DNA from: a virus
Virus record (IMG/VR): IMGVR_UViG_3300005573_000070
DNA length: 64,000 bases
Strand: one strand, 5' to 3'
The position numbers and the translations under genes are program-made. Positions within the stretch are counted from its first letter, which is position 1, and each line of letters opens with the position of its first letter. Positions 2,792 to 23,740 of this stretch are shown piece by piece. Below the pieces are notes generated by a model that saw only the letters and a program-made list of their open reading frames with translations, was not told where the DNA came from and made no database searches.

Positions 2792-4201
2792 TTATGCTTC
2801 TACTGTAAACTTCACATAAATCCAGTTAATATCAAATGTTGGCCTGACTGCAAAAGAAACATCTACTTGTCTTGGTTCGGTACTGTTCCTTACAACATTT
2901 ATGTCTCTGTAGTCAATGATTATGTTCGCGTTCGCGAGTTGTGTTAGTATTAACTTAACTGACATCGAAATTGTACTTAACAGTCCAGCACTATACGGCT
3001 GGTTAACAAAAGCAGTCAATGAATTCCTCATTAGTCTCATCAAATAGTCAACAATACGTGTGATTTTGAGCTCACCAGTTATAGGATTGGTTTGGTCGGT
3101 CGTTAAGGCATGACGAATCCTGAAGTTATCTTCGACAATCAAACAACCAGCACTTGCAATACTATTTTTCTGTACTCTTAACAAAGGATCAACAATTTCA
3201 TTGAAACCAGCAACGATTTGACCAGTTAAAGGTGCGTTCATTGCTAACGAATCAATTAATCCTGCAATTGCCGCGCCAAGATAATAACCACCAACTGTAA
3301 CTGTTGTTGTACCAACTGTTACTTTTACATTTGCTGGATAACAATATATAACTCTGCGATCTTTCAATTCACCAATCGTGGTTCGATAGTTAGTTTCATT
3401 TTCAGTTACACCAGCAGGTGGCCCAAAGATAGCTATTCTTTCTTTTTGTTCATCAACAGATGACATTTGTCTGACATGATTTATAATAGCAAGTACATCG
3501 CTAGAACTTAGGTCGCTTGTTTGACCGGACATATACCCACCTAAGAATATGATACTATATGGATATGACCCGTCAGGATTTTTGAGTGTTTGTAATTCGG
3601 TCAATATAGTATTAACATCTCTTTTGGAACCACTTATATCTTTCCAAGACACGCACCACACTGAAGATGCTCCGTTGGCAATTGCTATAGAAAATCCTAA
3701 AGGCAATGAATACTTGATATTTCCAGAATTGTCGGTTTCAACCTGACCCAAAAAGTTAGAAGCTTCTTCCACTTGAGTCGAATAGAAGAATTTAGGTTGG
3801 TAATCAGTTGTGGATTTTTTAAGATAGAAATACACAACGTAAGTAGTACCTTGTTGGGGTTTTTTACCGCCTGTCAACCAGGTTATCTGTAAATTACCAT
3901 CACCATCATTCCCTAACTCAAAGTCTGTACCAATTGTATAAATGTCAGAAGTTGTTAGATTAACTGCGCTTCCCCTGGCTGTATCTACCAGTGTAACATC
4001 AACATTTTCCCCATTCAATTTTACTAAGTTTGAATCACTACTTCCTTTCGTTATAGTATCAGATTCTGTTCTGGTGTAAGAATCCCATGTCCCAATTAAT
4101 ATCGGTACAAAGTTGCCCACAGTACCAATCACAGGCATCGGTTTTATTTCTGACTCTACGTAGACACCTGGTTCAATATATCCTTTAACAAATGTAGCCA
4201 T
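2792..4201 (-). CDS. tail sheath protein
   Basis: N-terminal PGVYVE; C-terminal RHALTTD...ELKITRIVDY...VDVSFAVRP typical of contractile sheaths. Confidence 0.9.
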   Translation of the reverse strand: MATFVKGYIEPGVYVESEIKPMPVIGTVGNFVPILIGTWDSYTRTESDTITKGSSDSNLVKLNGENVDVTLVDTARGSAVNLTTSDIYTIGTDFELGNDGDGNLQITWLTGGKKPQQGTTYVVYFYLKKSTTDYQPKFFYSTQVEEASNFLGQVETDNSGNIKYSLPLGFSIAIANGASSVWCVSWKDISGSKRDVNTILTELQTLKNPDGSYPYSIIFLGGYMSGQTSDLSSSDVLAIINHVRQMSSVDEQKERIAIFGPPAGVTENETNYRTTIGELKDRRVIYCYPANVKVTVGTTTVTVGGYYLGAAIAGLIDSLAMNAPLTGQIVAGFNEIVDPLLRVQKNSIASAGCLIVEDNFRIRHALTTDQTNPITGELKITRIVDYLMRLMRNSLTAFVNQPYSAGLLSTISMSVKLILTQLANANIIIDYRDINVVRNSTEPRQVDVSFAVRPTFDINWIYVKFTVEA

Positions 4202-4227: not shown

Positions 4228-5427
4228 TTATACATATACAAAACCTCTCTGGTACTTAACCAGAGATACTTTTGAAATCGGTACGTTTTTTACTTCATTA
4301 CCATCATCTATTCTTACATACTTACCATAACTATGTACACTCCTAACTCTGTACATTTTATTTTCCATCTTTATCAAATCTTCAGGATGATACTGATATC
4401 TTACCTTCCTTATACCAGGTTTATACCCCTTTCTGTTACACCGTAAAGTTCTATTGTTTCTCCTGCTTTGCCTAACCATGAAAGGTTCACATCTTGATAT
4501 ATTACCAGTGCCAACCATTGCAAAAGCATCATTGATATGAGATTTTTCCAAACCCAACAATATCCTGTTACTCTTGGTTACATAACCAAATGTAGGTACA
4601 ACAAGAATATTTGGGTAAATTTCTTTAAGTTTGTTAACAAGTAACCATCTAACAGTTGACATAAAAGTTTCTGCTTTAAATTCTTTGGGTACTTTAACAT
4701 CTAAAGTAATCTTTCCTTCAGTAACTTTTTTATGACATGTTCTACATAATGTTATAAGATTATCAGGACTGTTACTACCTACTTGTCTGGATATAAGATG
4801 ATGTACTTCTAATACCCTATCTCCTGATTTACCTTTACAGTATTGACAAACATGACCATCTCTGTGTAAGACATATTCTCTAACATTCCAGAAACCTTTC
4901 TGCTCACCATTCTGGTACTCTGCACCTTCTATATCAGGATTCTTTATCCTTTGAATGTCAAATGATGCAACTTCAATCACAATCTTTGATATAGGTAATA
5001 TTTGTTTTATCTGGTTGATTGCTTTAATATGACTATCTAACTTGTGTTGTATTGATGGAGCTAACCATCCTTTGTCTTTTTTCCTGTTAAGAAATCTGGG
5101 TTCACGATACCATGCCTTACGATTTCTGCGACATCTACGATATTGTCTCCGTTCAGAGTTAAGTTTTACAATATCATCTCTTAAAACAATTTCAGCACTA
5201 TATACTTCTCTTTTATCAGTAACAGCGGACAATCCAATACGTTCATAGCCATTATCAACGCCCAAAACTATTGGTTGTGTCGTTCCACCATTCATAACCG
5301 TTAACTGGATTGTGAATGGTTTTCTTTTGACCACTTTTGCCAAACCTTTCTTTAGCAATCTTCTTGCTTTACCAGAACTACACGGCATAAGTGGTAAACC
5401 TGATTTGTTTAATACATAAACTAGCAT
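4228..5427 (-). CDS. iscB: IscB RNA-guided endonuclease
   Basis: PLMP N-terminus, RuvC-I LGVDNG, Arg-rich bridge helix, RuvC-II IEVASFD, HNH (CQYC...HH...NLITLCRTCH), RuvC-III HINDA. Confidence 0.95.
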   Translation of the reverse strand: MLVYVLNKSGLPLMPCSSGKARRLLKKGLAKVVKRKPFTIQLTVMNGGTTQPIVLGVDNGYERIGLSAVTDKREVYSAEIVLRDDIVKLNSERRQYRRCRRNRKAWYREPRFLNRKKDKGWLAPSIQHKLDSHIKAINQIKQILPISKIVIEVASFDIQRIKNPDIEGAEYQNGEQKGFWNVREYVLHRDGHVCQYCKGKSGDRVLEVHHLISRQVGSNSPDNLITLCRTCHKKVTEGKITLDVKVPKEFKAETFMSTVRWLLVNKLKEIYPNILVVPTFGYVTKSNRILLGLEKSHINDAFAMVGTGNISRCEPFMVRQSRRNNRTLRCNRKGYKPGIRKVRYQYHPEDLIKMENKMYRVRSVHSYGKYVRIDDGNEVKNVPISKVSLVKYQRGFVYV

Positions 5428-5674
5428 AATTTGCTGAGAAGGTTTTTATGACAGGTACCTACACGGACCTGTCCAGGAACCTTCCCAAAACCTGTTGGTC
5501 CACATCGGGATTGTTATCCAAGGTTTTTAAACCTGTTACACTGAGAGTTTCCTCTCCGTTTAATAACAGGTCACAGTTGCATGGAACTTGTGGAACATTC
5601 CATGGTGTGTATGTATTTCACTTGGATAACTGCTGCTCTGGTTTTGTCACAGAGCCCCCTAAGGGGCTAGTTAC
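4232..5674 (-). mobile_element. IS200/IS605-family IscB element without tnpA
   Basis: iscB plus omegaRNA; bounded on + by TTTAT (4227-4231) and TTAC (5671-5674). Boundaries inferred. Confidence 0.65.
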
Positions 5675-5690
5675 CCTTACCTCTCACGAG
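5428..5690 (-). ncRNA. IscB omegaRNA (HEARO-like); predicted guide about 5675-5690
   Basis: About 250 nt upstream of iscB starting GTAACTAGCCCC-tta-GGGGGCT, with long-range pair GTTATCCAAG/CTTGGATAAC, CATGGAA..TTCCATG and GAGAG-gaaa-CTCTC stems. Confidence 0.8.
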
Positions 5691-5706
5691 GTAAGACCAA
5701 GATTAA

Positions 5707-6546
5707 TTACTTGGCTGACCCCTCGGCCAAGATCTGGTTAATAGTACTTTCGATGTTGATCTGGTTAATATAACCGAGTAACGATTCAGGAAATACTAAC
5801 TCGTACTCGGTATGACAGTTCCCTATTGTTATTGACGCACTGTACAACAATTCACCGTTCCATTCTATCGTACTTATTCCCGAAACATCCATCTTGGTAT
5901 AAGTTATCTTTAGCTCGGCCAGTTTATCTCTGAGAAAGAACCTTAAAAATATGGTAACAAGGTCAACAAGCCTTTCAACGTCAGTAACAGTAGATGCAAA
6001 TATCGAGATCTTTATACTTAACCGTAATATACCCGTGAAGTAAAGGTAAGGGATTGGGTTCTTCAAAATCAATGAAATTTCAAACGGAACTTCTTCGTTA
6101 AACACGGACTCTGACCATCTGATCTGAGCATATCCGGTCTGACCATCTTTAATTATTTCATATTTGTCGGGGTCAATTCCTGGAATAGTAACAGCTTCAA
6201 CTTCGTCATACAAAACAGGCTCATCATCTAACAAAACGGTGTCGGTATCACCGGGCCCCTTTACCATCCTTGACCTGAATTCCTTCAGTTCGACCCGTCT
6301 GACTTGCTCCTGGGGTCCTACATAAGATACGTCAATATTACTATGCTCGGCATCGACCACGATTATAGGAGTTTTAAAATATCTGTATGGAAACGCAGTA
6401 TAAATCAGAATCTTGGTCTGTTCCTCGTCGTCAACAAACTTGTATTCAGGAGGAACATAGTCGGAACCAAACACGGCTCTCAGCGACGCAACCCACGCCG
6501 CTTTTACCCAGTTGTAATGTTGTATGTCAAATCTTGGTTTTACCAT
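5707..6546 (-). CDS. putative tail terminator/completion protein
   Basis: 279 aa, upstream of sheath; positional call. Confidence 0.45.
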   Translation of the reverse strand: MVKPRFDIQHYNWVKAAWVASLRAVFGSDYVPPEYKFVDDEEQTKILIYTAFPYRYFKTPIIVVDAEHSNIDVSYVGPQEQVRRVELKEFRSRMVKGPGDTDTVLLDDEPVLYDEVEAVTIPGIDPDKYEIIKDGQTGYAQIRWSESVFNEEVPFEISLILKNPIPYLYFTGILRLSIKISIFASTVTDVERLVDLVTIFLRFFLRDKLAELKITYTKMDVSGISTIEWNGELLYSASITIGNCHTEYELVFPESLLGYINQINIESTINQILAEGSAK

Positions 6547-6549
6547 CGT

Positions 6550-6648
6550 AAAATCTCAAAAATTTTAAGTTGACCCGTATAGGCTAATATGTTTATATTG
6601 TTTTGATGCAGATCGCTTTTATTTTTTTGCGATTTTTGATGAGTGACC
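6550..6648 (+). repeat. ~100-bp repeat, copy 1 (inverted copy at 60076-60178)
   Basis: Near-identical to reverse complement of 60076-60178; contains TTGACC-N18-TATATT promoter-like sequence. Confidence 0.9.
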
Positions 6649-6662
6649 GTCAACTTTTTATC

Positions 6663-6739
6663 AAATCTTGTTGAAAAATCAAAGATGTTTGCAATAAACA
6701 GTTAAATTTTCAGTTCTTGTTCATTTTTCAACAAGGTTT
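6663..6739. repeat. TTGAAAAAT...ATTTTTCAA inverted-arm element, copy 1
   Basis: Arms cttgttgaaaaat / atttttcaacaag around a unique spacer of about 40 nt. Confidence 0.8.
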
Positions 6740-6769
6740 GATATCAAAGCAAATTCATCTAAAAAATGC

Positions 6770-7816
6770 CTAAATCCATAGTGGTACTTCTTCCTCACTG
6801 TCAATCAGATTGTATTTTCTTAACGCATTCGTTATTTTGTCGCGGTTAATACGGACCCTGATATCATCCGGGTCAACACATTCAAAAGATAGACCTTGTC
6901 TTAACATAACCCCTTGCCAGGTTGACACTTTAGTTTCTTTAACCGTGAACCGTTCGCCAGATACGACCCTGTGTAAAACATCATGTTGTGCAACGAGCGG
7001 GGTCCACAAAGTCCACGCATCCGGTGTTCTGTCTACCTCTAACCCGCTTTCTTTTATCTTTAACTCTAACTTTGGCATGCCCCAGTAACTTAACTTTATT
7101 CTAATTGGGTAATAGTACCCGCCTATGATACCAGTACCAAAACAAATTTCGCATCGTGCACGACCACTAAATCTCGGGCTTTCTTGATCATTCTTGATAG
7201 TGGGATCAAATGGTATCGGTTTAGATGAACCAACCGGGGTAACGTTGCCGGTTAACTTCGGCTCGACACATTCTGGACATACCGGACCTTCTCTACGTCT
7301 TTTGTACAAGATAAACTCTTCCCCGCCTATTTCCATCATCGCTATATGTCTTCTACGTATTTCATCTCTATAGAAAGTCATCATTTCGTAAGGAATTGTA
7401 GCTTTAACATAATCCGGAGCAGTAGCCTGGTTCGGAGCTATAACTGGGTTAAGTTGGGAGTAAGTGTTAAACATCTCTTCTTGTTTATCAGAAGCGGTAA
7501 AGTACGTAGCTGGTTCCTCTTGTAAAAACACTTCTTGACCATTTTTCTGGTAACTTACCCAAATATGAACGATTAACTCTTCTGGTAATATAATCTTCGA
7601 CGCTGGGAACTTTATCCTGAACGGAGGAGTCCCGCTAAAAGTACCAATTAACGTTCTGACGGTTGGAGTCAAAGAACCATAAATTTTGTACTCTGTTACG
7701 CCAGGTACCGGAGGAAAAGATACAGTTATATCCTTCGGATAACCTTCTTCCTTTACCAACTTTATAATAGTTGGTTTGTAAGATGGGTAAAATACACCAT
7801 AATGATCCCATTTCAT
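6770..7816 (-). CDS. putative head closure/neck protein with Zn-ribbon
   Basis: CPEC...CEICFGTG motifs; lies between head and tail modules. Confidence 0.45.
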   Translation of the reverse strand: MKWDHYGVFYPSYKPTIIKLVKEEGYPKDITVSFPPVPGVTEYKIYGSLTPTVRTLIGTFSGTPPFRIKFPASKIILPEELIVHIWVSYQKNGQEVFLQEEPATYFTASDKQEEMFNTYSQLNPVIAPNQATAPDYVKATIPYEMMTFYRDEIRRRHIAMMEIGGEEFILYKRRREGPVCPECVEPKLTGNVTPVGSSKPIPFDPTIKNDQESPRFSGRARCEICFGTGIIGGYYYPIRIKLSYWGMPKLELKIKESGLEVDRTPDAWTLWTPLVAQHDVLHRVVSGERFTVKETKVSTWQGVMLRQGLSFECVDPDDIRVRINRDKITNALRKYNLIDSEEEVPLWI

Positions 7817-7891
7817 TCTTCAGTTACTTCTTTCCTTTTACTAACTTTTTTTCCACTCAGTTTCATTCTTTTTCATTACCTCCTTTCTTTA

Positions 7892-8004
7892 ACCTTGACA
7901 TCCAGGGGATACTGTTTGTAATTATACAGGATATATTATGGGCTGGGGTCCAGCCTTATCTCAGGCTTAGTTCCTGAGAAGGTCCATTATTTGGACCGGA
8001 CCAC
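7892..8004 (+). mobile_element. miniature IS200/IS605 derivative, 113 bp
   Basis: TTTA|accttgacatccaggggata left end; three hairpins; ends GGACCGGACCAC; collinear with the tnpB-remnant copy at 50051-50248. Confidence 0.8.
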
Positions 8005-8391
8005 TTTGGTCAAGAGATACTGGTCATCTCTCAGGTAAACTATAGTATATTTTCCCTTCACTTTTTCTCCTTCAAATTCTACGACCATCCGTTTTGGGTC
8101 CGCATCCACGACTTTATAAAAACCCTTGTCATAAATTTTAACGGAACCGCCACCGTACTCACCTTTCGGAATTTCCCCTTCGAAATGTATATACTCTGAA
8201 GGATGTTCCTCGACTTGGACCATCAAAACCTTTTCACCTTCTTCCGGTAATTTAGCTTTCGGAATGGCGTAAGATATTAACACAGTATCCTCGGACTCGG
8301 GTACAGGTTCTGGGGTTCGGTCAAACCTACGTTTCTTTACATATCTCTCGAACAAATTCTTTTCTTCTCTATCTAAAACATCCCTGGTCAT
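7987..8391 (-). CDS. C-terminal part of LigD-type 3'-phosphoesterase
   Basis: KRRFDRTPEP, SYAIPK, QVEEHPSEY..FEG.IP.GEYGGG.V.IYD.G motifs; lacks the QxH...HYDxRLE segment. Confidence 0.85.
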   Translation of the reverse strand: MTRDVLDREEKNLFERYVKKRRFDRTPEPVPESEDTVLISYAIPKAKLPEEGEKVLMVQVEEHPSEYIHFEGEIPKGEYGGGSVKIYDKGFYKVVDADPKRMVVEFEGEKVKGKYTIVYLRDDQYLLTKVVRSK

Positions 8392-8392
8392 A

Positions 8393-8414
8393 GTAGTCTG
8401 GCCCGATAATAGGC
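8393..8414 (-). repeat. solo right-end copy of miniature element
   Basis: ttatcgggccagactac matches ttatcggaccagaccac at 15/17. Confidence 0.7.
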
Positions 8415-8442
8415 TTTGACGAAAAGATGTGACTTATTGTCG

Positions 8443-10698
8443 TTACAAGGACTCTTCGTCAACCTTGACAACTTCTTGTTCCCAGACAGGTACTTCTTTA
8501 CCGGTACTGGCCCATACAACTTTCAGTGCCCCGTCGACTTTTTTCTCAACTACAACACCTAGCTCGCCAGTTTTGCGATGCATTACACAATCATAAACAA
8601 ATATAGGCTCGTTAGCGGTCTTGATTTGTTTCTTCTCCGGTTTGAATGAAACACTATCTAACAAACCATCAATTATCGCATTCTTAGTAATCTCAACTTT
8701 AGGAGTTTTTGACTTCAACTGAGCTTCTTTCTCAAGAGTACCATATAAGCAAGTTGAACAATTAGGGTACTCAAGACCGTAAGGGCATGATGAACACAAC
8801 GTCGCTCGCCTGACAACCATTCCGCTAACAGGGCACTCTACCAACGTTTCTTCTATTCTGTCGTTCGTTTCCTCAAAATCAAAAGATCCAGAACTGACAA
8901 TGAGCTCTGATGTACCGTCACTTAATAGTTCGTCATAATTCGTAAGTAGTACCTGGTCACCGTCAGTACCTAGATAAACATACCTGTCTTTACCAACTGT
9001 TATTACACTTCCTACTTTCTTCATAGACCATTTTATAATTGAGATCATTTCTTTTATCCGTTCTCTAACTTCTGGTGGTTCGATCCGATCAAGACCCGAA
9101 TAAATCTTGTCTAAGAAACTGTTCCATAAGTAAGTTGCTGCGGCATATATCGTATCCAATGTTGGGAACGAAGAAAGGAACTGATGAATCCAATCTACTA
9201 CATTTGTTGCGGATTCCCTGATCTTTCTGGCATAGAGACGAATCTCGTTCTTATCTATCTTTGCCTGATAATTTTCACCGTAGTAAGATCGGAACAAGTT
9301 ATCAAGGATCGTGGCAACAGTCTCGTCTGATATAATACCGCTTCCCTTAAACCTGTTATATATTTTGACCATTTCGTCTCGGGTATCTTGCAAAATTCTT
9401 CGTTCTCTTTCTTCAGTGCGTGGAACAGGTCCCTGTTTTCTTCGTTTAAAAAGCTTTGACGCCTGGTCTCTGAAAAATGAGTCAATAGCGTTTTTTACTG
9501 GAATGGCTAACAAGATCTGAGCACCAAATGCGTCAAGAATCTGTTTCTGCGGATCTTCATACTGCATCAACTTACTTATGTCGAGGGCCTCGACAAGATT
9601 TGGTTTCAATATGTTATCGTACCATTTGTCGAACGCGTCTGGACTAACAAAAGAGATCCTGTTCTTGGAAAAATAGTTTTCTATTTCCTGTTTAATGTTG
9701 GCCTTCTTGCTATCAATATCCTGAATGGACCGAATATGGTTCTTAATAATCTCGTATAACTGGGGTTCGAAGTCATGGGGAACCAGCTTACCTGGGGTCA
9801 ATTCTATATATTGTTCTCTTGTCGGATTTAGAAGCTCGTTTATGGCCAAAGCTATCGCACTACGTACCCGATTAACTTTCTGACCACCAACAAATACCGG
9901 AATTATCTTAGTTGTAATAGTTTCTACTATGGCTGGCTCAACGTAATCCTTCATCAACTGACTAAGAGCAACATCGTTGTTTGGCTCAAGATTGACACCG
10001 TTTGCGTTAAGTAACTCAAGAATCAGCGACTTAAGACTATCTAAAAATTTAGTAATATCGTCTTTTTTGTCGGTTACCAAGTACGATTCGACAAGGCTAA
10101 CGAGAACATCTTTGTGCAACTGCTCATAAAACGCGCCCAGAACAAGGTTATACGCCGTTTTGAACATGTTGAGAACCCATTCTCCCCTTTCTGATCTAGG
10201 CGTCTTTGAAATTATCGTTTTTGTTGACAACAATGCCATAATGTTCGACAAGTATTGTAAAACAGGCCTGAACCTAATAAACGGCATGGCCGCGTTCGCG
10301 AGAGTACCGGGTCGGGCTCGTCCCTTTTTGTGTTCGGTAACCAATTGAGAAGCAGCCTGGTCTATTTCGGCAAACAAATCTTTCATTTTTCGGTCTGCTT
10401 CTGATATCATTCGTTGTAAGTCGCTACCAGTCGAAACTTCACCTTCAGCCTCACCACCCGGTAATTCTTCATAAACACTAAAACCGGACTCACCAGGAAC
10501 ATATACGTCCAAATCCTCCTCTTCAAACTGAGCTTTCTTGGTAAAATAGTACAGTTTGAAGATAAGAGGGTCAACAAGTTCGGCCTGGACAACAAACCCA
10601 CGGCCGTCATTATAGACGACCAGATAATCAGGTCCTATATAATAAGCGGTACCACGTTGTCCCGAAATGCTAGAGATTTTAATCCCATAGTCCGACAT
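8443..10698 (-). CDS. large multidomain hypothetical protein (helical core, Cys cluster, C-terminal SH3-like domain); candidate internal head protein
   Basis: Start reassigned to ATG 10698 (GGAGGG RBS). Confidence 0.6.
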   Translation of the reverse strand: MSDYGIKISSISGQRGTAYYIGPDYLVVYNDGRGFVVQAELVDPLIFKLYYFTKKAQFEEEDLDVYVPGESGFSVYEELPGGEAEGEVSTGSDLQRMISEADRKMKDLFAEIDQAASQLVTEHKKGRARPGTLANAAMPFIRFRPVLQYLSNIMALLSTKTIISKTPRSERGEWVLNMFKTAYNLVLGAFYEQLHKDVLVSLVESYLVTDKKDDITKFLDSLKSLILELLNANGVNLEPNNDVALSQLMKDYVEPAIVETITTKIIPVFVGGQKVNRVRSAIALAINELLNPTREQYIELTPGKLVPHDFEPQLYEIIKNHIRSIQDIDSKKANIKQEIENYFSKNRISFVSPDAFDKWYDNILKPNLVEALDISKLMQYEDPQKQILDAFGAQILLAIPVKNAIDSFFRDQASKLFKRRKQGPVPRTEERERRILQDTRDEMVKIYNRFKGSGIISDETVATILDNLFRSYYGENYQAKIDKNEIRLYARKIRESATNVVDWIHQFLSSFPTLDTIYAAATYLWNSFLDKIYSGLDRIEPPEVRERIKEMISIIKWSMKKVGSVITVGKDRYVYLGTDGDQVLLTNYDELLSDGTSELIVSSGSFDFEETNDRIEETLVECPVSGMVVRRATLCSSCPYGLEYPNCSTCLYGTLEKEAQLKSKTPKVEITKNAIIDGLLDSVSFKPEKKQIKTANEPIFVYDCVMHRKTGELGVVVEKKVDGALKVVWASTGKEVPVWEQEVVKVDEESL

Positions 10699-13378
10699 GG
10701 TCTGTCCCTCCCAATATCTCTTCGATTGTTTCAGGCCTTGCAAAGGATTCGTCAAGACCGCCACTCTCGACAGTACCAACTACTTCAGCTTCTGGTGTTT
10801 CTGGTATTTCGGTTTCCGGTTTCTCTTCCTCTTCTACTCCTTCTTCTGTTTCCTGACGAATCTTTTCATATTCTTCAACGTATTCTTGTTTTTCAGCCTC
10901 GACCCTAGCCTTTTCGTATTTCTCTTCCAGATCTTGCTTACGTTTACGAAGGTCACTAATTATTGTGTCCAAACGAGATACAAGATCGTCTAGACCGGTT
11001 CCTTCAGCTCGTTGCTTTTGACGGGACACAACATCAATTTCGGTATCGACTTCTTCAACGGTCTTCTCGTAGATATCAGTTATTTTTTCTGGGTCTCGAC
11101 TGATCTCGTCGGAAACAGCTTGTGCGAAATCATCAGCCGACATTCTTGAGAAATCCTCCGGAGAAAATCTATACAAGACCGGCAAACTACCAATTAAGAA
11201 CTTGGTACCACGAGTACCTTCAGGATACTGGAACACGGTCTTACGAAGGTCTCTTATTACCGTGTTTATTGTGTCAATATACGGAGCAATTGACGTAACT
11301 GCACTATCAAAATCAGGGCCCTTTTTGTCCCTTGCTACCAAAGCCGAAACGTTAGAAACTAGTGCAATCGCTTCTGGAACAATTGTAGATTCTATTTCCT
11401 TCTCTGCTTTCTCTACAACATACATTGTCTTTGTACCTAACGACAAAAGTATACCATCAATAGAAGATACTAGTTTGTCGTAATGTGGTTTTATGTTTTT
11501 ATCGACAATCTCTGTATTAAGATTTTTTGACGCCCAGTCATAAAGAGAACTAACGGCGTCTCTCAATGTACGCAATGTGTTTTCCAACCGGCTTGTGTTG
11601 TCAATAACAGAAGATATCCGATCTATCTCGTTGAAAACGCTCGCAATTTCGTAAACCGTTCTTAGGAAAGGAACATAAAGCATTCCGTATGACCTTGGAA
11701 CCTGTAACCGTCTATGCAATGTAACAGATGTAGGTATATATTCTTTCCACAGATATTTTTCCCTTTCGAAAACTTCTTTGGTTGGAACAGTTTTAGATTT
11801 TGGTTTTTCGGCCCCGAACAAAACTTCCTTAACTCCGAACGATCCGGCTATCTCAACGATTGCAGACCTAACAGCTTTTTCCAAATCAGTTCCGGGACGA
11901 GCCATAACTTTAGCAAGGTTCGACGATATAGTCTTATATGCGTTAATAAAACTCTTGCGGTCAAGAACGTTCCAAGTTGCACTAAAAGTTTGACCAGCAT
12001 ACTCTACAACTGCTGTTACGAAATGGGCGCTCTCTTTAAGTGATGGATTGTACACTTTCCTCATGATCAATTTAACGGCAATGGTCGGAATCACTTGGTT
12101 CGCAACATTTACGACTTTGTTCCGGTAAGTTGTCCTGTACGCATGACGAATACTTTCCTTAACTTTTGGTGGTAAGTCGGCTCTATCTAGAACAGCATCG
12201 AACGTGTCAAGAACAGCACGAATTGCAATTAACCGTCTCAACGCCATAACAGTTGCCGAACTAAGATCAGATAACGCGGAACGAACTTGTTTGTGATAAT
12301 GCTTAGCCAAATCAACGACATTTTTAATGTAAAGAGCAGCCTGGTCAATTCTTTGGCGTTTCTCAAGCGTTGTAGACGCCTTACGAGCCTCTTCAAGAGC
12401 GTCTATTGCATTTTGTAGATCCCCTCTGAAATGGATCCCTGGATAATGCTCTGTCAAGGTTCGTAAATCGTTTACCGCCGTGTCTAACACAGAATCCGTT
12501 TGCTGAATCTCTTTTCGGACCTCTTCAGGAGTTCCGGCCTGTTCTGCGTTGTACAACCGGCGAGATTGGTCTTCCAGGTCCCGATGTAGTTTTCTTAACT
12601 GTTTGATGAAAGGACCAACGTCCCAACCGGTTCCCTCTTCTGGTGATCCAAGAACTTCCGTTTCTATATCTGAGTAAATATCTGGTATAACATTACGGAG
12701 ATCGGACAAAAGACCGAACAACAGTTCGTGTCCCGGACTTTCTTCAGAAAGGGGTCGTGGTTTGAAGGGAAGAGGACTACCTTCAGGCATGTCAAGTAAA
12801 TTACCCAATGTTGTGTATATCGGTTCGCCTACCTTTGCGAAGAAATTGCGCAAAGCTTCTTTCAAGTCTTCAGGTATTGGCCCCGTTTCCTTTATCGTGG
12901 TCAGCTGGTCTATCAAATAGTTCTGTAAAGAATCACAAAGAGCTGTTCTCTGGTCTCGTGGTAAGGACTTTATAAACTGGACAAAAGAATTCTCTGTAAT
13001 GAATGGAAGAGCGCCAACAGGTTTTTTCTCGAGAAAGGAAACGACAACATCGTATGGAAAATTGTCTTTTACTATCGGGATGGTATTGTAGAGACCGATC
13101 CATTTCTTGAGAGTTGTCGTGGGTACTCCTTTGCGGAGATCATGTTCGAACAAAGCCTTGATTATCTCTGGAATGCCTAAAGTATAGCCGGCATCTGACA
13201 ACGATTGTAACCATAACAAAACACGGTCAATATTACCAGAATCACGATTGACCAGTTCTTGTACCTTTTCGAGATGGTCCGGAGTAACTTGGTTAACCGA
13301 TTTAATGTCGTCGAGTAGACCCTTCCATTCGTCAAAACGACTTGCACCACTTTTCAACCATTTACTAAGAACGCTCAC
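10679..13378 (-). CDS. 899-aa helical hypothetical protein; candidate internal head protein
   Basis: GTG start overlaps the ligase TGA; N-terminal SKWLKSG motif; acidic C-terminus. Confidence 0.6.
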   Translation of the reverse strand: MSVLSKWLKSGASRFDEWKGLLDDIKSVNQVTPDHLEKVQELVNRDSGNIDRVLLWLQSLSDAGYTLGIPEIIKALFEHDLRKGVPTTTLKKWIGLYNTIPIVKDNFPYDVVVSFLEKKPVGALPFITENSFVQFIKSLPRDQRTALCDSLQNYLIDQLTTIKETGPIPEDLKEALRNFFAKVGEPIYTTLGNLLDMPEGSPLPFKPRPLSEESPGHELLFGLLSDLRNVIPDIYSDIETEVLGSPEEGTGWDVGPFIKQLRKLHRDLEDQSRRLYNAEQAGTPEEVRKEIQQTDSVLDTAVNDLRTLTEHYPGIHFRGDLQNAIDALEEARKASTTLEKRQRIDQAALYIKNVVDLAKHYHKQVRSALSDLSSATVMALRRLIAIRAVLDTFDAVLDRADLPPKVKESIRHAYRTTYRNKVVNVANQVIPTIAVKLIMRKVYNPSLKESAHFVTAVVEYAGQTFSATWNVLDRKSFINAYKTISSNLAKVMARPGTDLEKAVRSAIVEIAGSFGVKEVLFGAEKPKSKTVPTKEVFEREKYLWKEYIPTSVTLHRRLQVPRSYGMLYVPFLRTVYEIASVFNEIDRISSVIDNTSRLENTLRTLRDAVSSLYDWASKNLNTEIVDKNIKPHYDKLVSSIDGILLSLGTKTMYVVEKAEKEIESTIVPEAIALVSNVSALVARDKKGPDFDSAVTSIAPYIDTINTVIRDLRKTVFQYPEGTRGTKFLIGSLPVLYRFSPEDFSRMSADDFAQAVSDEISRDPEKITDIYEKTVEEVDTEIDVVSRQKQRAEGTGLDDLVSRLDTIISDLRKRKQDLEEKYEKARVEAEKQEYVEEYEKIRQETEEGVEEEEKPETEIPETPEAEVVGTVESGGLDESFARPETIEEILGGTDHVGLWD

Positions 13379-15741
13379 GACCGTACCCTCTCAACAGGGA
13401 CTTCTAATCTTAAATCATAATGGTTTCGGTTTCGTTTGTATGAAAAATGGTCCTGAATAACAAATCGCCCTCTATACCCAATCAAATTCTTAAAGTCCGT
13501 ATTACGGAACGCTTTCTTGGCAAAGTTTGTAATTTTAGCATCTTCTTTTTCGAATTCATCAATTTTTTCAATTTTAATTGGTAACGTAACCAATCCTGTT
13601 CTCCACGATAACGAATACGGTACCTTTATTGACCCGTTATATTTCAACGTACTAACGTCCAACCTAATCATTCTTGGGTCGTGTGTTATTCCAGTTGTTA
13701 GACCAGAATAACCAGACGAGCTGATGAAATCCTCGAGTAATAGTACTAAAGTATGCCGCAAATCGTTAACATTCATCTTCCGTTTCAACTTTCCGAGGAT
13801 GTGAAAACCACGATTACCACTAAATTGTACAGAAAGATCTCTGACCATATCCCACCCTTCTAAAAATTCGTAAAGGTCTTTTGTAACCTGTTTAACTTTT
13901 TTAAACGGAACCTCTTCTCGCGGGTCAATATCAACAAAGAAATAGTCAATGTTTTTACTGTCAATTACTTTGTGAATCTCGACGGTCCGTCCGTGGTTAA
14001 TCTCGTCAAACAGATCCTCAGTTAGAACCATCGGTTCCCCGTCTATATTACGTTTCAGAACAGGACCTTTGTCCGTCTTAATAACGATAAATATCCTTGA
14101 TCCGAAGGGCAATTTGTCTTTGACACTGTTGAAATAGTCATATATTTGTTTCTTGGTCAGTTTGCCATATTCTGATTCTATCACAACATCATTTTCAGTC
14201 CCTGGTTTTAATCCGCTCGTGACCAACCAAGCCCTACTCACCCGTCTGATTTCAGTAGGATGTGCTTCACTTACATACAAATGCCCTTCATCTATTGGTT
14301 CGTCCCATAGAACTAAATAATCGATATCGGTCCGTTCAAGATAATTACCACATTCGGGGCATACATAATAAACTGAAAACATTGGAAAGTTCCGTCTAGG
14401 AACAGGTATCGTTTGCACGTTACAATTAGGACACCAAATCTGTTCGTAATCTATGATCGTTCCTGTAATCCCTTTAGCTATACTTACGATGCGGTCGCCC
14501 GGTTTATACCCTTCGTACGAATCATTACCCATATCAATTTGCAGACAGTGCAAACCATCATTTACTGGGTACATAAGTCCGTTCACAAAACAACCACATT
14601 TCTCAAGTAACGCTTTATCTTCTGATAAAATGTATGTGTACTGTTTAGCTACTATCGGTATCAACTGACCACTGTGTTTCTTTACTACATCTGGTGGTAA
14701 AACCTGGGTTATCCGCAGATCTTCTGGTGTTAACTGTTTGTCTTCACGGATACGTTTGAAAGAAGGCTGTCTTAACGTACCAGCAGGATAATCATCTACA
14801 TAAACCCATTTTTTATTTTTTCTATCGAACTTCATGCCAGGACCTTCCTCAATATGAATCTCTCGGGCCTCAACTTCCACAACCTTAGGATCCTCAAATG
14901 GGTCCACATAAATCATCCTTCCCTTGCGGAAAACCTCGTGTTCTTCAGCCCATTCCAACCACTCTTCACGCTCTTTGTCAGTAAAACCAGATCCTACCAT
15001 GGAGTCAAAGATAAATAACCCTTCTTCGTTCATATAAGCAAGCTGTAAGGCGCCCATTCTGGTAGGATCTTTCTTGGACAATTCAACACCTACAACCGCG
15101 AAGTCTACAGTTAAAACAGGTTTCACTTTTATTCGAGTTCCGTCTTCAAAGACAATTACCAGTCCCTCCCACATACTTTTTTCAGATAATACTGTCTTCC
15201 ATGCCTTACCAAAATCCCTTGTTTGGAACACAGTAACAGGAGACACTCTTGTACCTTTAAACAACCGTTGTACCAAGTTAATACGGTCAAATATGGGTTT
15301 CTCCAAATAGTTTTTGCCATCAATTGAAATAATATCGAAGATCATCAGATGGATTTTGTTTTCGTCTTCTAGATCTTTTGGTGCGCGGAGAATACTGATC
15401 GCTTTCGGATAAGACATCACAACACCCGGTCTCTCAAGAACATATAGCTCACCAACCGCGACCAGTTCGTTCGTTCTCTTACCATCTAGTAAAGCCTTGA
15501 ATTCGTTCGTAACTGGTAGATCGGTCCGGACACGACCATTTTTCGACAACAAGTAACATTGATCTTTTTTGCGAGAATAATGGACCAAAGATAGTTCACC
15601 GTCAATCTTTCCGGTTATCAAATAGTTGCCCTTGAGATACTTTGGGGCATCTTTGTAATCAACCGTATCAATAGGCCATTCCTTCTTGTATGCATGTAGA
15701 ACCGGTAATAAAGGATGATCTTTGTTAATAAACTGCTTCAT
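13375..15741 (-). CDS. ligD: LigD-like fusion: ATP-dependent DNA ligase + SH3/Zn-ribbon + AEP primase-polymerase + N-terminal part of phosphoesterase
   Basis: KIDG, GELY, FDI, EGLV, RIKVK ligase motifs and OB domain; VDIDP, SGNRGFH, KVPYSL AEP motifs; ends FVIQDH...HYDLRLE. Confidence 0.88.
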   Translation of the reverse strand: MKQFINKDHPLLPVLHAYKKEWPIDTVDYKDAPKYLKGNYLITGKIDGELSLVHYSRKKDQCYLLSKNGRVRTDLPVTNEFKALLDGKRTNELVAVGELYVLERPGVVMSYPKAISILRAPKDLEDENKIHLMIFDIISIDGKNYLEKPIFDRINLVQRLFKGTRVSPVTVFQTRDFGKAWKTVLSEKSMWEGLVIVFEDGTRIKVKPVLTVDFAVVGVELSKKDPTRMGALQLAYMNEEGLFIFDSMVGSGFTDKEREEWLEWAEEHEVFRKGRMIYVDPFEDPKVVEVEAREIHIEEGPGMKFDRKNKKWVYVDDYPAGTLRQPSFKRIREDKQLTPEDLRITQVLPPDVVKKHSGQLIPIVAKQYTYILSEDKALLEKCGCFVNGLMYPVNDGLHCLQIDMGNDSYEGYKPGDRIVSIAKGITGTIIDYEQIWCPNCNVQTIPVPRRNFPMFSVYYVCPECGNYLERTDIDYLVLWDEPIDEGHLYVSEAHPTEIRRVSRAWLVTSGLKPGTENDVVIESEYGKLTKKQIYDYFNSVKDKLPFGSRIFIVIKTDKGPVLKRNIDGEPMVLTEDLFDEINHGRTVEIHKVIDSKNIDYFFVDIDPREEVPFKKVKQVTKDLYEFLEGWDMVRDLSVQFSGNRGFHILGKLKRKMNVNDLRHTLVLLLEDFISSSGYSGLTTGITHDPRMIRLDVSTLKYNGSIKVPYSLSWRTGLVTLPIKIEKIDEFEKEDAKITNFAKKAFRNTDFKNLIGYRGRFVIQDHFSYKRNRNHYDLRLEVPVERVRS

Positions 15742-17972
15742 TGAGATTTATTTGTGATCTGGTCCGCCAAATCGGCCGCTCCGAAAGCTCTCAAACTATC
15801 AGCAATCTCCTCAAGATTAACTGGAAATGCGCTTATGCCTAATTTGATCTCTCGCACAAGGTCCCTTACTCGGTCCTCGAGCTGTTCTCGGACCTGAACT
15901 AGAATATCGTTCGCTGTTCCGTTAGCAAAATGGTGGAGATCTTCCAAAGCAGTCTTCTTCTCCTCAAGGTCAGCAATACCAAGTACGGTAATAAATTGAC
16001 TTTTGGTGGTTTCATAAAGAGAATCGGATAATTCGGCTTTCAAAGATTCGAACTGATACTTTGACCCATTCATTATCTCGGTAGCGATACTGTCCGCAAT
16101 GTCCAAAACCGCGCCAATATACTGTTGCTTAAGCTGTTCAATGTCCGATTTCGGTTCTACCTTTCCTCGTTGAAAGTCCCACTCTCCTACCAAAGAAGGA
16201 AACAGTAAAACGGACCGAATCTGGTAAATTTTGTGGTACAAATTCCCTGGTTCGGAACTCGAACTAATATATCCTTTTCCTTTGAGAAACTCGAAAAAAT
16301 CATTCAGTATATCGCGAGCGGTACGACCTAATCTCAGATTTTGAAGATCGTCGCTCCGTAATACTTCAGTAATCGTATCATAAACATTCTTAATAAAAGC
16401 TCGTGCCTCCGAATTCAAATTGGGCACGACATCAAGAAGAACCTTGCGTGTCTCAGACGTATCATATTGCGGAACAATTTTCTCGAGACCAAATGATGGT
16501 GCCTCAGTTATAGACTCTTCCACATACTTTTTGAACTGAATGATTTCGTTGACCTTAGTTTCCAGTGTACTGATTTGGTCTTTGAGGTCGTCAAAATCTT
16601 TGTCTAGCTCAGGAAAATTGATCTTTTCCGTACCAGCACGCCGGATCGATTTGATAAGGTCTAATGACTCGCTTACAATCTCCTTGATCCTGTTGATTTT
16701 ATTTGCCGCCTCATTAACATTGAACTGGTCATCAAAGTACGTGTTAAGTATATGATATATCCGATCAATGTTTCGACCCAGACGATTAACAATTTCCGAC
16801 TGAGCAATATCCACAAGATTACCTATCCTAAGAAGAGCTTCCGACAGAAACTCGTCAAGTTCTTCAACATATTCCTCAACCGCCATAGAAGACTGACCCA
16901 CAGATGTGACATCAAAAGACGGACCTAGCTTGTTTGGTAGATCAAGCTTCTTGACAGATTCAACAACGGACCTGATCTTATCATGCGCGGCTTCGGGAGT
17001 AATGCGCTTGAACGTGACACTGTCTCTAATAACACGAACTTGGCGTTGCAAGTCGTTCAGTACATCTTCCAGGTCAAAGATATCTGAGGAAGTAATCAAA
17101 TGCTCGTACGGCTCCGTTTCCGAAGGCATAGAATACGACACCTGTTTTACCGCCTTCAACTTTTCATAAATGGAGAAAAGTATCTCGCGAATTCTGGACA
17201 CAATACTTGATACTTCTTCCTTTTCCGGATTTGACAGTTTAGTGACAGTAACTTTCTCTGATGTGTATCGGGGCAATCGGTCTTTGATGTACTCGAGAAG
17301 AAGGGTGTCTCGTTTCGCCTCATCTATCCGAAAATATTTCCTGTTTTTAATACTCCCGGTAACTTTGTATAATGTAACAAAATACTTGACAAAGAGGTCT
17401 TTATAAACGTTCGAGATAAGAAACTTAAAAAAAGGACCTTCGTATTCTGGTCCTGGCATCTTAGTTGGTTTGACCTGCTTGGTCGGGGTCCTTGGAGACA
17501 GAGGACGAACCGTAACCTTCTCAAGTTCCGATCCTAAAATAGTCCGTAGCTGTTCCGCAACATCGGAAAAAGAATCTCGCATTTCTTTGTACAAATCATT
17601 TAAACTATCTATCTTTGATGTGTCGGCATCTGAAATTGCTTCCTTAACCTTTTTTCTCAACAACTTTATAACATAGTTAAACGAAGTATTACTAATTTTC
17701 GAAAGGGTACCTAAGAACGAAGCCATTAGAGCAAGACCCTCTCCGTAAGCACCTTCGCGTAAAGCCTCGAAAAATCCTTCTAAATCAACCAAGTTGACAA
17801 AATTAGGATCAAGTGTTCGGACAAGAAATGGTCGGACCATATCAGGATCCCATACCTGGTACTCATTATACGTCTCAAGAAGATCACTCCAATTTACAGG
17901 TCTCGTTAATTGGCCCGGAGGAATGATAACGGACTGTTTTGTCTTAACATCAACCTTGTGTACCTTCGCCAT
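15738..17972 (-). CDS. 744-aa helical hypothetical protein
   Basis: Long ORF coupled to neighbours; no recognised catalytic motif. Confidence 0.6.
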   Translation of the reverse strand: MAKVHKVDVKTKQSVIIPPGQLTRPVNWSDLLETYNEYQVWDPDMVRPFLVRTLDPNFVNLVDLEGFFEALREGAYGEGLALMASFLGTLSKISNTSFNYVIKLLRKKVKEAISDADTSKIDSLNDLYKEMRDSFSDVAEQLRTILGSELEKVTVRPLSPRTPTKQVKPTKMPGPEYEGPFFKFLISNVYKDLFVKYFVTLYKVTGSIKNRKYFRIDEAKRDTLLLEYIKDRLPRYTSEKVTVTKLSNPEKEEVSSIVSRIREILFSIYEKLKAVKQVSYSMPSETEPYEHLITSSDIFDLEDVLNDLQRQVRVIRDSVTFKRITPEAAHDKIRSVVESVKKLDLPNKLGPSFDVTSVGQSSMAVEEYVEELDEFLSEALLRIGNLVDIAQSEIVNRLGRNIDRIYHILNTYFDDQFNVNEAANKINRIKEIVSESLDLIKSIRRAGTEKINFPELDKDFDDLKDQISTLETKVNEIIQFKKYVEESITEAPSFGLEKIVPQYDTSETRKVLLDVVPNLNSEARAFIKNVYDTITEVLRSDDLQNLRLGRTARDILNDFFEFLKGKGYISSSSEPGNLYHKIYQIRSVLLFPSLVGEWDFQRGKVEPKSDIEQLKQQYIGAVLDIADSIATEIMNGSKYQFESLKAELSDSLYETTKSQFITVLGIADLEEKKTALEDLHHFANGTANDILVQVREQLEDRVRDLVREIKLGISAFPVNLEEIADSLRAFGAADLADQITNKSQ

Positions 17973-19662
17973 TTTTGTCTGCCTCCCCCTGGGAAAGCCC
18001 TAACTTGGAAACAAAAGAATGATACAAATTGACTAATTCCTTAAGTCCTTCCGTAATAATACCAATAATTCTTGTAACTTTCTCAAAGGAATCTTCTATT
18101 ATCCTTCGAGATATGATGTCTTCAATTTTCTGTACCTTTCCTTCAAAGTCGATCATCAACCGGGTCAGTTCTTCCCTTGTCTTCGCATTTCCCGAAGAAA
18201 GCTCTAACGCTTCGTCGTACAGTTCACCTAACCAACCAGGAAGTTTCTGGACTTCTGGATCTTGCCAAGATGATACTCGATCTATATAATCACGAACTTG
18301 TTCGATCGCCTTCTCAATCTGTCGTGCGATTTCGTCGAATCGTTCACGAACAGTACCCAACTGAACTAGCCGTTCCTCGAAGGCTTGGTATCCCGGTTTA
18401 CTTTTCTGTATCTTTTCCCAATCTTTGAAAGAGAAACCTTCGGGAGATATCGGCAGTTCAGTGAGGACATCGGGAGTTACTGACCGAATTTGCGGCATAT
18501 CAGGTGACGGAAACTGCTCACTCAATATTTTACGAATCTTGCGCATTTCGGTGTTAATATTTTCGCGCATTTCTTCAATTACTGGCGAAATATTAGGTAG
18601 CCCCTCACGAAGCATGGTTAATCGCTGAACAGTACCAGGAAACGTTAGTTCTTTAAGATAGTCAGATACTGTCTTTTTAATATATGACTCCATGTCAGAA
18701 GCCCCACTCCCTTCAACTAAAGATATCAACGAATCCACAGTTAAAACGCCACGAGCTATTTTGTCAAATTTATCAACTACTTGACGGACCCAATTAACAA
18801 AGTCATTATGTACCTGGATGATGGGTTTCAACTGATCAAGTTGTCCGGCAATAAGAAGGGGGTTATAAGGGCCGTATCTTTGGGGCAACTCGACCGTTTG
18901 TGCGTTTTGTCTAAACTGAGGTGTTTCCGTAAATTCCCATCGAGGGTACAATTCTTTATCCTTCTTCAACAACCCGCTACCAAATTCTGTATCTATGTGT
19001 GGACCAAAAACGTCACGACGATCTAAGTGATCCTTTGGGCCAGACAACCATTTACGTCTTAACTCAGTATCGTCCTTAGTAAAAGGATGTTCATCTCTCC
19101 GATCAGTAATTGGTATCTCTTCAACGAGCCAGCTGTTCTTAATAGAGCCCTTGTGCTTAAACCACTGAACTCTGCGTTCTTCTGACAGTACTCGTTCTTT
19201 GGACGGTTTACGAGGACCGAACCATCTAAGAACTTTTTTGGGATTAGATCTTGAAACTAAAGCCCATTCGACACGATTATGGTTTTTGTTATATCTGCGG
19301 ACCAACCTTGCTTCTTTTTTCGTCCCCTCAGTGACTATATAAATCTCAAGAAAAGAACTACCCATAATATTGTCAGAAACGTTCGGATTTTCGTAAAAGA
19401 AACGACCTAGTTTCTCCTTGTACTGACTAACGTCTATTCCGGGAGTCTTCCCGTTAACAATGATCAATTTCGTTCCATCATCAAGTTCACTAAAATAGCC
19501 TTTTGCATATATACGTTTCCCGGTCGGTAGCTCGGACGCTGTTTCTGCCGTAGCAAGGTCTGGCTCACTATTTTCGGTCTCTTTGAAAAGTAGCCAGTAC
19601 TTGACCGGCTTCATTTTGTCCAAAGGCGTGTTTAATACGTCACGAACACTTCGAGGAGCCAT
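17950..19662 (-). CDS. 570-aa hypothetical protein with coiled-coil C-terminus
   Basis: Long ORF in head-associated cluster. Confidence 0.6.
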   Translation of the reverse strand: MAPRSVRDVLNTPLDKMKPVKYWLLFKETENSEPDLATAETASELPTGKRIYAKGYFSELDDGTKLIIVNGKTPGIDVSQYKEKLGRFFYENPNVSDNIMGSSFLEIYIVTEGTKKEARLVRRYNKNHNRVEWALVSRSNPKKVLRWFGPRKPSKERVLSEERRVQWFKHKGSIKNSWLVEEIPITDRRDEHPFTKDDTELRRKWLSGPKDHLDRRDVFGPHIDTEFGSGLLKKDKELYPRWEFTETPQFRQNAQTVELPQRYGPYNPLLIAGQLDQLKPIIQVHNDFVNWVRQVVDKFDKIARGVLTVDSLISLVEGSGASDMESYIKKTVSDYLKELTFPGTVQRLTMLREGLPNISPVIEEMRENINTEMRKIRKILSEQFPSPDMPQIRSVTPDVLTELPISPEGFSFKDWEKIQKSKPGYQAFEERLVQLGTVRERFDEIARQIEKAIEQVRDYIDRVSSWQDPEVQKLPGWLGELYDEALELSSGNAKTREELTRLMIDFEGKVQKIEDIISRRIIEDSFEKVTRIIGIITEGLKELVNLYHSFVSKLGLSQGEADKNGEGTQG

Positions 19663-23739: not shown

Positions 23740-23740
23740 G

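Follow-up and report, generated by a model that had tools for sequence, protein, structure and literature searches.

The phosphoesterase (PE) domain of LigD is best described for Pseudomonas aeruginosa, where H42, H48 and D50 bind the catalytic manganese and strands beta1, beta2 and beta5 form one face of the barrel (PMC3300020). In this enzyme and in the archaeal PEs a YxxKRDFxxTPEP module comes first, followed by beta1-beta2, which carries Q40/H42 and H48/D50/R52, and then by beta3; the contribution of the disordered N-terminal segment, with its R14/D15/E21 module, to the 3'-monoesterase activity 'remains a mystery' (PMC3300020). Enzyme genes broken into parts are known from phages: nrdA of Aeromonas phage Aeh1 is split by mobE into NrdA-a and NrdA-b, described as 'genes in pieces' (Crona et al. 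2011, PMC3045599), and fractured genes with split inteins occur in metagenomes (PMC2677866). Here we analyze a locus where the PE domain itself is divided. It lies in a 64,000-nucleotide (nt) stretch of viral DNA (IMG/VR record IMGVR_UViG_3300005573_000070), the whole of which we call the window, and consists of a DNA ligase-polymerase (Lig-Pol) gene that ends in the first two PE strands, two intervening genes, and a 134-amino-acid (aa) open reading frame (ORF) with the rest of the domain. By analogy, Aeh1 nrdA/mobE is the nearest precedent, and the present pair is probably also a stable 'gene in pieces', its PE being reassembled as proteins by strand complementation.

The divided phosphoesterase domain

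The genes of the locus and their parts, all on the minus strand, are:

13375..15741, minus strand: Lig-Pol gene, 788 aa, ATP-dependent DNA ligase, LigD-type primase-polymerase and PE beta1-beta2 hairpin
Lig-Pol aa ~38-335: ligase domain (PF01068, PF04679)
Lig-Pol aa ~437-481: SH3-like/Zn-ribbon insert (PF08271)
Lig-Pol aa ~586-744: LigD-type primase-polymerase domain (PF21686)
13396..13479, minus strand: PE N-fragment, Lig-Pol aa 755-782 (local profile match, E 1.5e-11)
13375..13395, minus strand: new C-terminus, VERVRS and stop; the tail ends differ in P0001-P0007
10679..13378, minus strand: intervening gene 1, 899 aa, ORFan with many predicted helices and charged residues
8443..10698, minus strand: intervening gene 2, 751 aa, ORFan, C-terminus Cys-rich and SH3-like; ATG at 10698 with GGGAGGG upstream
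8392..8442, minus strand: 51-nt spacer without a Shine-Dalgarno site, with two in-frame TAA stops and a degenerate copy of a hairpin motif
7987..8391, minus strand: PE C-fragment (PE-C), 134 aa, assigned from Pfam PF13298, PDB alignments and invariant columns

To measure the split we used hidden Markov models (HMMs) of the N-part, the C-part and the full domain, built from 14 contiguous PE relatives outside the window's clade and searched against the six-frame peptides of the window. The N-part model has a sole match, to the last ~30 residues of the Lig-Pol ORF (next best E 1.6), and the sole match of the C-part model is the 134-aa ORF (E 2.9e-46). On the full model the two ORFs cover positions 6-35 and 33-153, i.e., they abut: the break in the window's clade falls at the end of beta2 and is clean, with no segment lost or duplicated. 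The split of the PE domain is real and far beyond chance. A preliminary description of this locus, which had placed the start of the PE in the Lig-Pol ORF and its remainder in 7987..8391, gave the ORFs and motifs as we find them, and the unique, abutting matches bear it out.

The Lig-Pol protein matches PHROG 114 and ends in FVIQDH, nine residues, HYDLRLEVPVERVRS and the stop codon. Its residues Q763, H765, H774, D776 and R778 correspond to P. aeruginosa Q40, H42, H48, D50 and R52, which means that the Mn ligands of a PE and R52 are all present, and all in the Lig-Pol tail. PE-C opens with a relocated LxxYxxKRxFxxTPEP module (R21, E28) and continues with beta3-beta8, carrying K45, E61, H63 and Y67; these residues correspond to R14, E21, K66, E82, H84 and Y88. 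Its match to Pfam LigD_N (E 3.5e-19) covers profile positions 17-106 of 107 only, and because the match starts at position 17, PE-C lacks the first PE strands. A one-polypeptide domain with the TPEP module N-terminal to beta1 is not found in the window, and the eight-strand PE fold is obtained only from both chains jointly, in the co-fold below. Since the Lig-Pol tail has all three Mn ligands and PE-C has the other catalytic residues, neither piece is a complete enzyme. The earlier statement that the catalytic residues are retained across the two halves holds for all the equivalents it listed except P. aeruginosa D15, a position that is not conserved.

Read-through from intervening gene 2 into PE-C was also considered as a candidate and rejected, given the two in-frame TAA stops in the spacer.

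An inherited module order

In the window the TPEP module heads the 134-aa ORF and so comes after beta2, a permutation that the preliminary description had noted. At least 22 contiguous PE clusters show the identical order. One of them, P0010 (1162 aa, Lig-Pol-PE), runs in a single chain from the FVIQ-H and H-D-R-L-E strands through LxxYxxKRxxxTPEP to VLxSxA. The permuted order therefore predates the break and was not produced by it, because contiguous relatives already have it. When the 150 cluster representatives (50% identity) nearest to the 134-aa protein are classed by the spacing from HxDxR to ExH, they fall into four groups:

canonical spacing, 32-41 residues: 107 of 150
longer, permuted spacing, 56-67 residues: 22 of 150
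no beta1-beta2 strand upstream: 10 of 150
unclassified spacing: 11 of 150

The contiguous permuted class (P0010, P0019-P0023, P0025, P0026, P0029-P0032, P0037, P0038, P0067, P0071, P0076, P0090, P0101, P0107, P0147 and P0153) has varied architectures, including Lig-Pol-PE proteins of ~1150 aa. Its member P0038 is predicted as a PE barrel with a mean local confidence (predicted local distance difference test, pLDDT) of 89; Foldseek gives it a probability of 1.0 to 3p4h, 3p43 and 3n9b, and target-normalised template modelling (TM) scores of 0.84-0.87 to 3p4h and 3p43. We found no description of a PE subfamily with a relocated module among the titles and abstracts that literature searches on LigD PE listed. 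The module of this subfamily occupies the loop between beta2 and beta3, beside the active site, which gives a testable clue to where the R14/D15/E21 module acts.

Upstream of beta1, at 13480-13515 of the window (Lig-Pol aa ~743-754), the split clade keeps a stretch like KKAFRNTDF. Faintly reminiscent of the KRDFxxTPEP module that is N-terminal in canonical PEs, but without the E-P, this stretch could be a vestige of it or a coincidence.

Age of the split and selection on its halves

Seven protein clusters that are 90-50% identical to Lig-Pol all stop a few residues past H-x-DLRLE-[VI]-P. Four contigs, L012, L013, L001 and L002, span the locus, with Lig-Pol identities of 90, 87, 83 and 50%, and all four have a Lig-Pol with the tail, two genes, and a PE-C of 122-125 aa:

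L012: Lig-Pol 788 aa, gene 1 899 aa, gene 2 767 aa, PE-C 125 aa
L013: Lig-Pol 785 aa, gene 1 921 aa, gene 2 744 aa, PE-C 125 aa
L001: Lig-Pol 787 aa, gene 1 905 aa, gene 2 760 aa, PE-C 125 aa
L002: Lig-Pol 795 aa, gene 1 451 aa, gene 2 837 aa, PE-C 122 aa

One more contig pair, from a single sample, is compatible with the same layout. Neither half contains a frameshift or stop in any of the five spanning genomes (the window included) or in L010. In a ligase-domain tree, midpoint-rooted only, the split forms and a pair without the tail, P0008/P0009, make up one clade (95/99 support) that excludes the contiguous P0010. Within this clade the pair without the tail joins P0006/P0007 (90/90 support), and this nesting suggests a later loss of the tail. 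The comparison with related phages proposed earlier thus gives the identical split layout in every spanning relative, an outcome that the preliminary description had itself named as counting against excision, and on this comparative evidence the split is old and stable across the clade.

Scans of IMG/VR with the Lig-Pol protein and the PE-C alignment gave no relatives. The same alignment, run against JGI metagenomes, matched mainly LigD PEs of canonical length, as judged by match length, and these matches are no census of the split form. The contigs around P0024, P0148 and P0020 were too short or uninformative.

Between the window and L012, its closest relative, synonymous sites are already near saturation (synonymous divergence, dS, ~1.1-1.3). 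For this pair the ratio of nonsynonymous to synonymous divergence (dN/dS) is 0.043 for Lig-Pol and 0.074 for PE-C, and for the last 34 codons of the tail it is ~0.06-0.09 (against L012, L013 and L001). Across 22 aligned tails and contiguous N-parts the residues H765, H774, D776 and R778 never vary, nor do R21, E28, E61, H63 and Y67 across 20 C-parts, and the identity ranks of the two halves agree across genomes. Judged by these substitution patterns, both halves are under purifying selection.

Predicted fit of the two pieces

In the AlphaFold model of the whole Lig-Pol protein, a linker (residues 736-749) with pLDDT below 50 is followed by a hairpin, E760-767/E772-779, that is exposed, of low confidence, and not packed on the polymerase domain. 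A phmmer search of the 51-residue tail against the PDB gave no match, the query being too short.

We then consider the two chains jointly. The 134-aa protein was co-folded with the last 51 residues of Lig-Pol, using user-supplied alignments, in three runs and with 3 controls. The interface score ipSAE is 0.85 in all three runs, and 0.02 for the best of the 3 controls; the tool's mark is reached by 58 of 80 solved complexes and by 2 of 110 mismatched pairs, both counts being approximate for user-supplied alignments. The predicted contacts involve PE-C residues 34-48 (beta3) and 80-102 (beta5). In the native PE fold beta2 and beta1 lie next to these two strands (PMC3300020). As a model, the co-fold shows structural complementarity, i.e., likeness rather than binding.

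Probable reassembly and its alternatives

The preliminary description had offered two readings, a stable split enzyme that works in trans and an excisable switch. Synteny, selection, the divided invariant residues and the co-fold all favor the first, and the second does not stand. The sequence of events could be as follows. The ancestor would have been a contiguous Lig-Pol-PE gene of the PE subfamily with the KRxFxxTPEP module between beta2 and beta3. This gene would have been broken right after beta2, where two late-operon genes now separate the pieces. Lig-Pol would present the beta1-beta2 hairpin, with the three Mn ligands and R778, on a flexible C-terminal linker, and the 134-aa protein would give the six other strands, with H63, Y67, E61, K45 and the R21/E28 module. 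After translation the hairpin would slot between beta3 and beta5 of the 134-aa protein and close the barrel, making a non-covalent Lig-Pol-PE enzyme for end-healing and end-joining. We infer the actual binding, the PE activity and the origin of the break.

Several observations weigh against such a reassembly. A co-fold can score high by recalling the single-chain PE fold. At the position of D15 the window and L001 have R22, and L002 has D. As the preliminary description noted, PE-C lacks a Shine-Dalgarno site, whereas a GGAGG ribosome-binding site precedes most genes of the window, and expression of PE-C may therefore be low. The nested lineage P0008/P0009 has lost the tail, so that the PE must be dispensable in some relatives. 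Finally, the partner arrangement is not uniform. In L009 (positions 1-1424 of a contig from an NCBI metagenome-assembled genome) a PE-C that is 60% identical to the window's is fused in frame to a larger protein, of which it forms the C-terminal domain (at least 473 aa in all). The upstream part has at least 350 residues, the contig starting inside the gene, and does not detectably resemble intervening gene 2 of the window; the fusion could be an artefact of assembly or of an indel.

The L009 fusion to a different large protein and the tail-less Lig-Pol of P0008/P0009 are also what one would expect if the halves had taken up independent new functions, the 134-aa protein acting alone or with another partner, for example as a DNA-end or metal-free binding protein, and the tail being a mere appendage of Lig-Pol, with no shared active site. 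We regard this as unlikely. The three metal ligands and R52 are invariant in a 30-residue tail with no other evident role, the complementary catalytic residues are invariant in PE-C, and the concordant identity ranks of the two halves argue in the same direction.

That both pieces are non-functional remnants of a PE destroyed by insertion is quite improbable. The missing ribosome-binding site of PE-C, the one lineage without the tail and the loss of D15 would fit decay, but at saturating dS the dN/dS of PE-C is 0.07 and that of the tail stays below 0.1, no catalytic residue varies even among relatives of 50% identity, and the five spanning genomes and L010 are free of frameshifts and stops in the halves.

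The intervening block

The preliminary description's second reading was an excisable cargo cassette: a 5-kb block with IS200/IS605-type ends whose removal restores a contiguous Lig-Pol-PE. Some features of the window are in its favor. Just 1 nt separates the PE-C start from a hairpin motif that resembles a right end, the window encodes an IscB with HEARO RNA, a polymorphic miniature element adjoins PE-C, and the two halves are in the same frame. We nevertheless consider the cassette very improbable, for reasons that concern the block itself, its ends, and the frame.

All four spanning relatives, the most distant at 50% identity, have the block, which is under purifying selection and diverges along with its flanks. 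Gene 1 is 76, 51, 23 and 19% identical to its orthologues, with dN/dS of 0.14-0.23, and gene 2 is 81, 59, 33 and 25% identical, with dN/dS of 0.12-0.15 and with BLAST-level conservation confined to the C-terminal part in L001 and L002. As identity falls in step with the flanks, these genes were inherited with the locus and not swapped in. The two genes contain no nuclease, transposase or recombinase domain by Pfam and PHROGs; gene 1 has no Pfam match, no reportable PHROGs match (best a tape measure, E 0.0084) and no ESM Atlas match, and gene 2 no ESM Atlas match either. In the ORF list the reading frame of gene 2 extends to a TTG at 10779.

At the 5' junction, the start of gene 1 overlaps the Lig-Pol stop by 4 nt in all five genomes (GTGA in the window), a conserved arrangement that speaks against a cassette. 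The last variable codons of the tail contain this overlap and GAGAGGG, which we read as the Shine-Dalgarno site of gene 1; both are as expected if a gene block with its own ribosome-binding site had landed just past beta2. The hairpin CCCT-N6-AGGG (13386-13399), previously proposed as the left end, is at chance level, with 301 such 4-bp/6-nt hairpins in the window and 10 in the Lig-Pol ORF. It sits in conserved coding sequence, its AGGG arm inside GAGAGGG.

At the other junction, the motif GGNCC-N7-GGNCCAGACCAC has 10 matches with at most 3 mismatches in the window, against 0.38 expected. The copies, in hairpin-rich intergenic elements, are at 7981, 8393, 15754, 26154, 26226, 30634, 37056, 50225, 57724 and 62420. 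The right end proposed at 8393 is thus a genuine member of a repeat family (8393-8416), yet a weak one, with 3 mismatches, and specific to a lineage: L012 has a related CGGACCAGAT before the PE-C ATG, no such sequence stands there in L013 and L001, and L002 has overlapping genes at this point. Because L013, L001 and L002 share the split without the motif, it must have arrived after the split. Paired subterminal ends of the IS200/IS605 kind are therefore not found, nor is any polymorphism or excision junction of the block. Specifically, the contigs of three hot-spring runs are colinear with the window over 7976-15800, including a ~92%-identical strain at a depth of 115x, and contain no excision joint, although in assembled contigs rare events would escape.

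The start-to-start distance was correctly given as 7350 nt in the window. The shared frame has no further meaning: of 5 genomes only 2 (the window and L013, not L001, L002 or L012) have a distance divisible by three, and the shared frame in the window is therefore chance. The data do not support a genetic switch, and that reading is corrected here.

Joining of the halves at the level of RNA or protein, by an intron, a split intein or a translational bypass, is the least probable alternative: nothing beyond the split itself speaks for it, Rfam gives no intron family for 7800-15900 with a cutoff as loose as E <= 1, each intervening gene is translated from a ribosome-binding site or start/stop overlap of its own, and the 6 extra residues after the PE match in the tail and ~12 before it in PE-C are far too short for intein halves (roughly 100 + 35 residues). 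The bypass in T4 gene 60 spans 50 nt, and 5 kb far exceeds this; we know of no translational bypass that approaches such a length.

The miniature element mentioned above lies beside the split and is not part of it:

7825..8001: hairpin-rich miniature element, 177 nt, just 3' of PE-C and overlapping its stop codon, recognized from the repeat families

It is skipped in the contig of the ~92%-identical strain (run X3), i.e., polymorphic for presence and absence, and the joints in the contigs of the three runs concern only this element. It is consistent with the 'miniature IS200/IS605' element of the earlier note. In L012 a 171-nt hairpin-rich spacer (6468-6638) separates the upstream 755-aa gene from Lig-Pol, where the genes of the window overlap by 4 nt; it is another small indel element at a gene junction.

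The minus-strand segment 4228-5715, between a 279-aa neck-region gene and the tail sheath, encodes a 399-aa RRXRR + HNH protein (Pfam E 4e-65 and 3e-11) with a HEARO RNA in front of it (RF02033; at 84.3 bits it exceeds the gathering score). We read this pair as an IscB with its omega-RNA. The segment has a low GC content (0.335) and is absent from the same position in L001, L002 and L009, and for the latter reason looks recently inserted in the window's lineage.

Genomic setting

The source contig is a tailed phage from a hot-spring metagenome, and the minus strand holds nearly all genes of the window. DNA and protein searches of phage databases gave no match for the window. The structural genes that frame the locus are, in transcription order:

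34266-35876: large terminase, head module
30683-32449: portal, head module
grouped with terminase and portal: protein of 773 aa with a head-protease domain
2792-4201: tail sheath, downstream of the 279-aa gene

After the head genes come several unassigned genes and large proteins without a family (570 aa, 744 aa), then Lig-Pol, the 899-aa and 751-aa proteins and PE-C, and downstream of this two conserved genes (348 aa, 279 aa) before the sheath. Further upstream in the window are UDG-PolA, RecA, DnaB, SbcCD-like proteins and QueC/FolE2. A Pfam scan of 47 ORFs of the window turned up no Ku domain, and a promoter/terminator scan of 7700-16000 did not rise above the shuffled background.

Compared with Lig-Pol, PE-C and the neck genes downstream, the large genes flanking Lig-Pol (15738-19662 and 8443-13378) change at a much higher rate. 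In L001 a single 1031-aa gene (4318-7413) replaces the 570-aa and 744-aa genes, with 44% identity in the N-terminal part only. Placed between head and tail modules, this fast-evolving block possibly encodes virion-internal or ejected proteins. Elsewhere in the window (23197-23769), a 190-aa protein combines an STIV B116-like domain (PF08960, E 3e-9) with a rubrerythrin/ferritin-like C-terminal part, and has a counterpart in L001 at 85% identity.

A further idea, tentative and in our view rather doubtful, is that the tail hairpin serves as a docking tag, such that PE activity and a larger assembly form only when the late-operon partners meet, as a DNA-end repair machine that is packaged or ejected. 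It could be packaged or ejected because the locus lies between the head genes and the neck and sheath genes, among large fast-evolving proteins. In the same speculative vein, the protein of at least 473 aa in L009 would be tethered to Lig-Pol through the reconstituted barrel.

Comparison with known systems

If the reassembly is true, the locus would provide a natural enzyme whose active site is shared by a ~30-residue metal-ligand hairpin and a six-strand partial barrel, and, since a whole phage clade has maintained the split, a lasting thermophilic case beside the few 'genes in pieces' described so far. A thermostable self-assembling pair of this kind could also serve as a complementation tag.

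The likeness to Aeh1 nrdA is threefold: inserted DNA interrupts a phage enzyme gene whose counterparts in relatives are contiguous, the fragmented active site is rebuilt without RNA splicing, protein splicing or DNA rearrangement (here a prediction), and short new tails are found at the break. A contiguous orthologue with a clean break and purifying selection are both found here, as in a gene in pieces, whereas an inserted mobile endonuclease or intron is not. The insert in Aeh1 is a homing endonuclease, and here it is 5 kb with two large ORFan late genes; the break here is inside one small 8-strand barrel, one 'half' being a ~30-residue hairpin, and the split is common to a whole clade at 50% identity.

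Compared with the LigD PE of P. aeruginosa (3N9B, 2LJ6) and the archaeal stand-alone PEs (3P43, 3P4H, 5DMP), the fold and the catalytic set are the same, with Mn ligands H42, H48 and D50 plus R52, H84, Y88, E82 and K66. Enzymes of this type have Mn-dependent 3'-phosphomonoesterase and 3'-ribonucleoside resection activities, H84 and Y88 serving both. LigD modules are known to be fused in different orders or to be separate proteins, but the known cases separate whole domains, and the present break runs through a single PE domain. In the window's subfamily the KRxFxxTPEP module is between beta2 and beta3; in the P. aeruginosa PE it is N-terminal and disordered.

As to mobile elements of the IS200/IS605 type (IscB/TnpB OMEGA), the window shares with them the IscB and HEARO RNA, hairpin elements, and a degenerate right-end-like motif at the PE-C start. 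The 5-kb block differs in having no second end, no transposase and no presence/absence polymorphism, and it predates the motif.

Split GFP 1-10/11 and NanoBiT are engineered barrels short of strands that are completed by a peptide on another protein. The present pair is alike in that a partial barrel would be completed by a short peptide borne on the other protein, and different in being natural and, as predicted, catalytic, with the metal ligands on the peptide. What is new here is the break within a single small barrel, a ~30-residue metal-ligand hairpin as one 'half', the two-gene late insert, and the relocated TPEP module.

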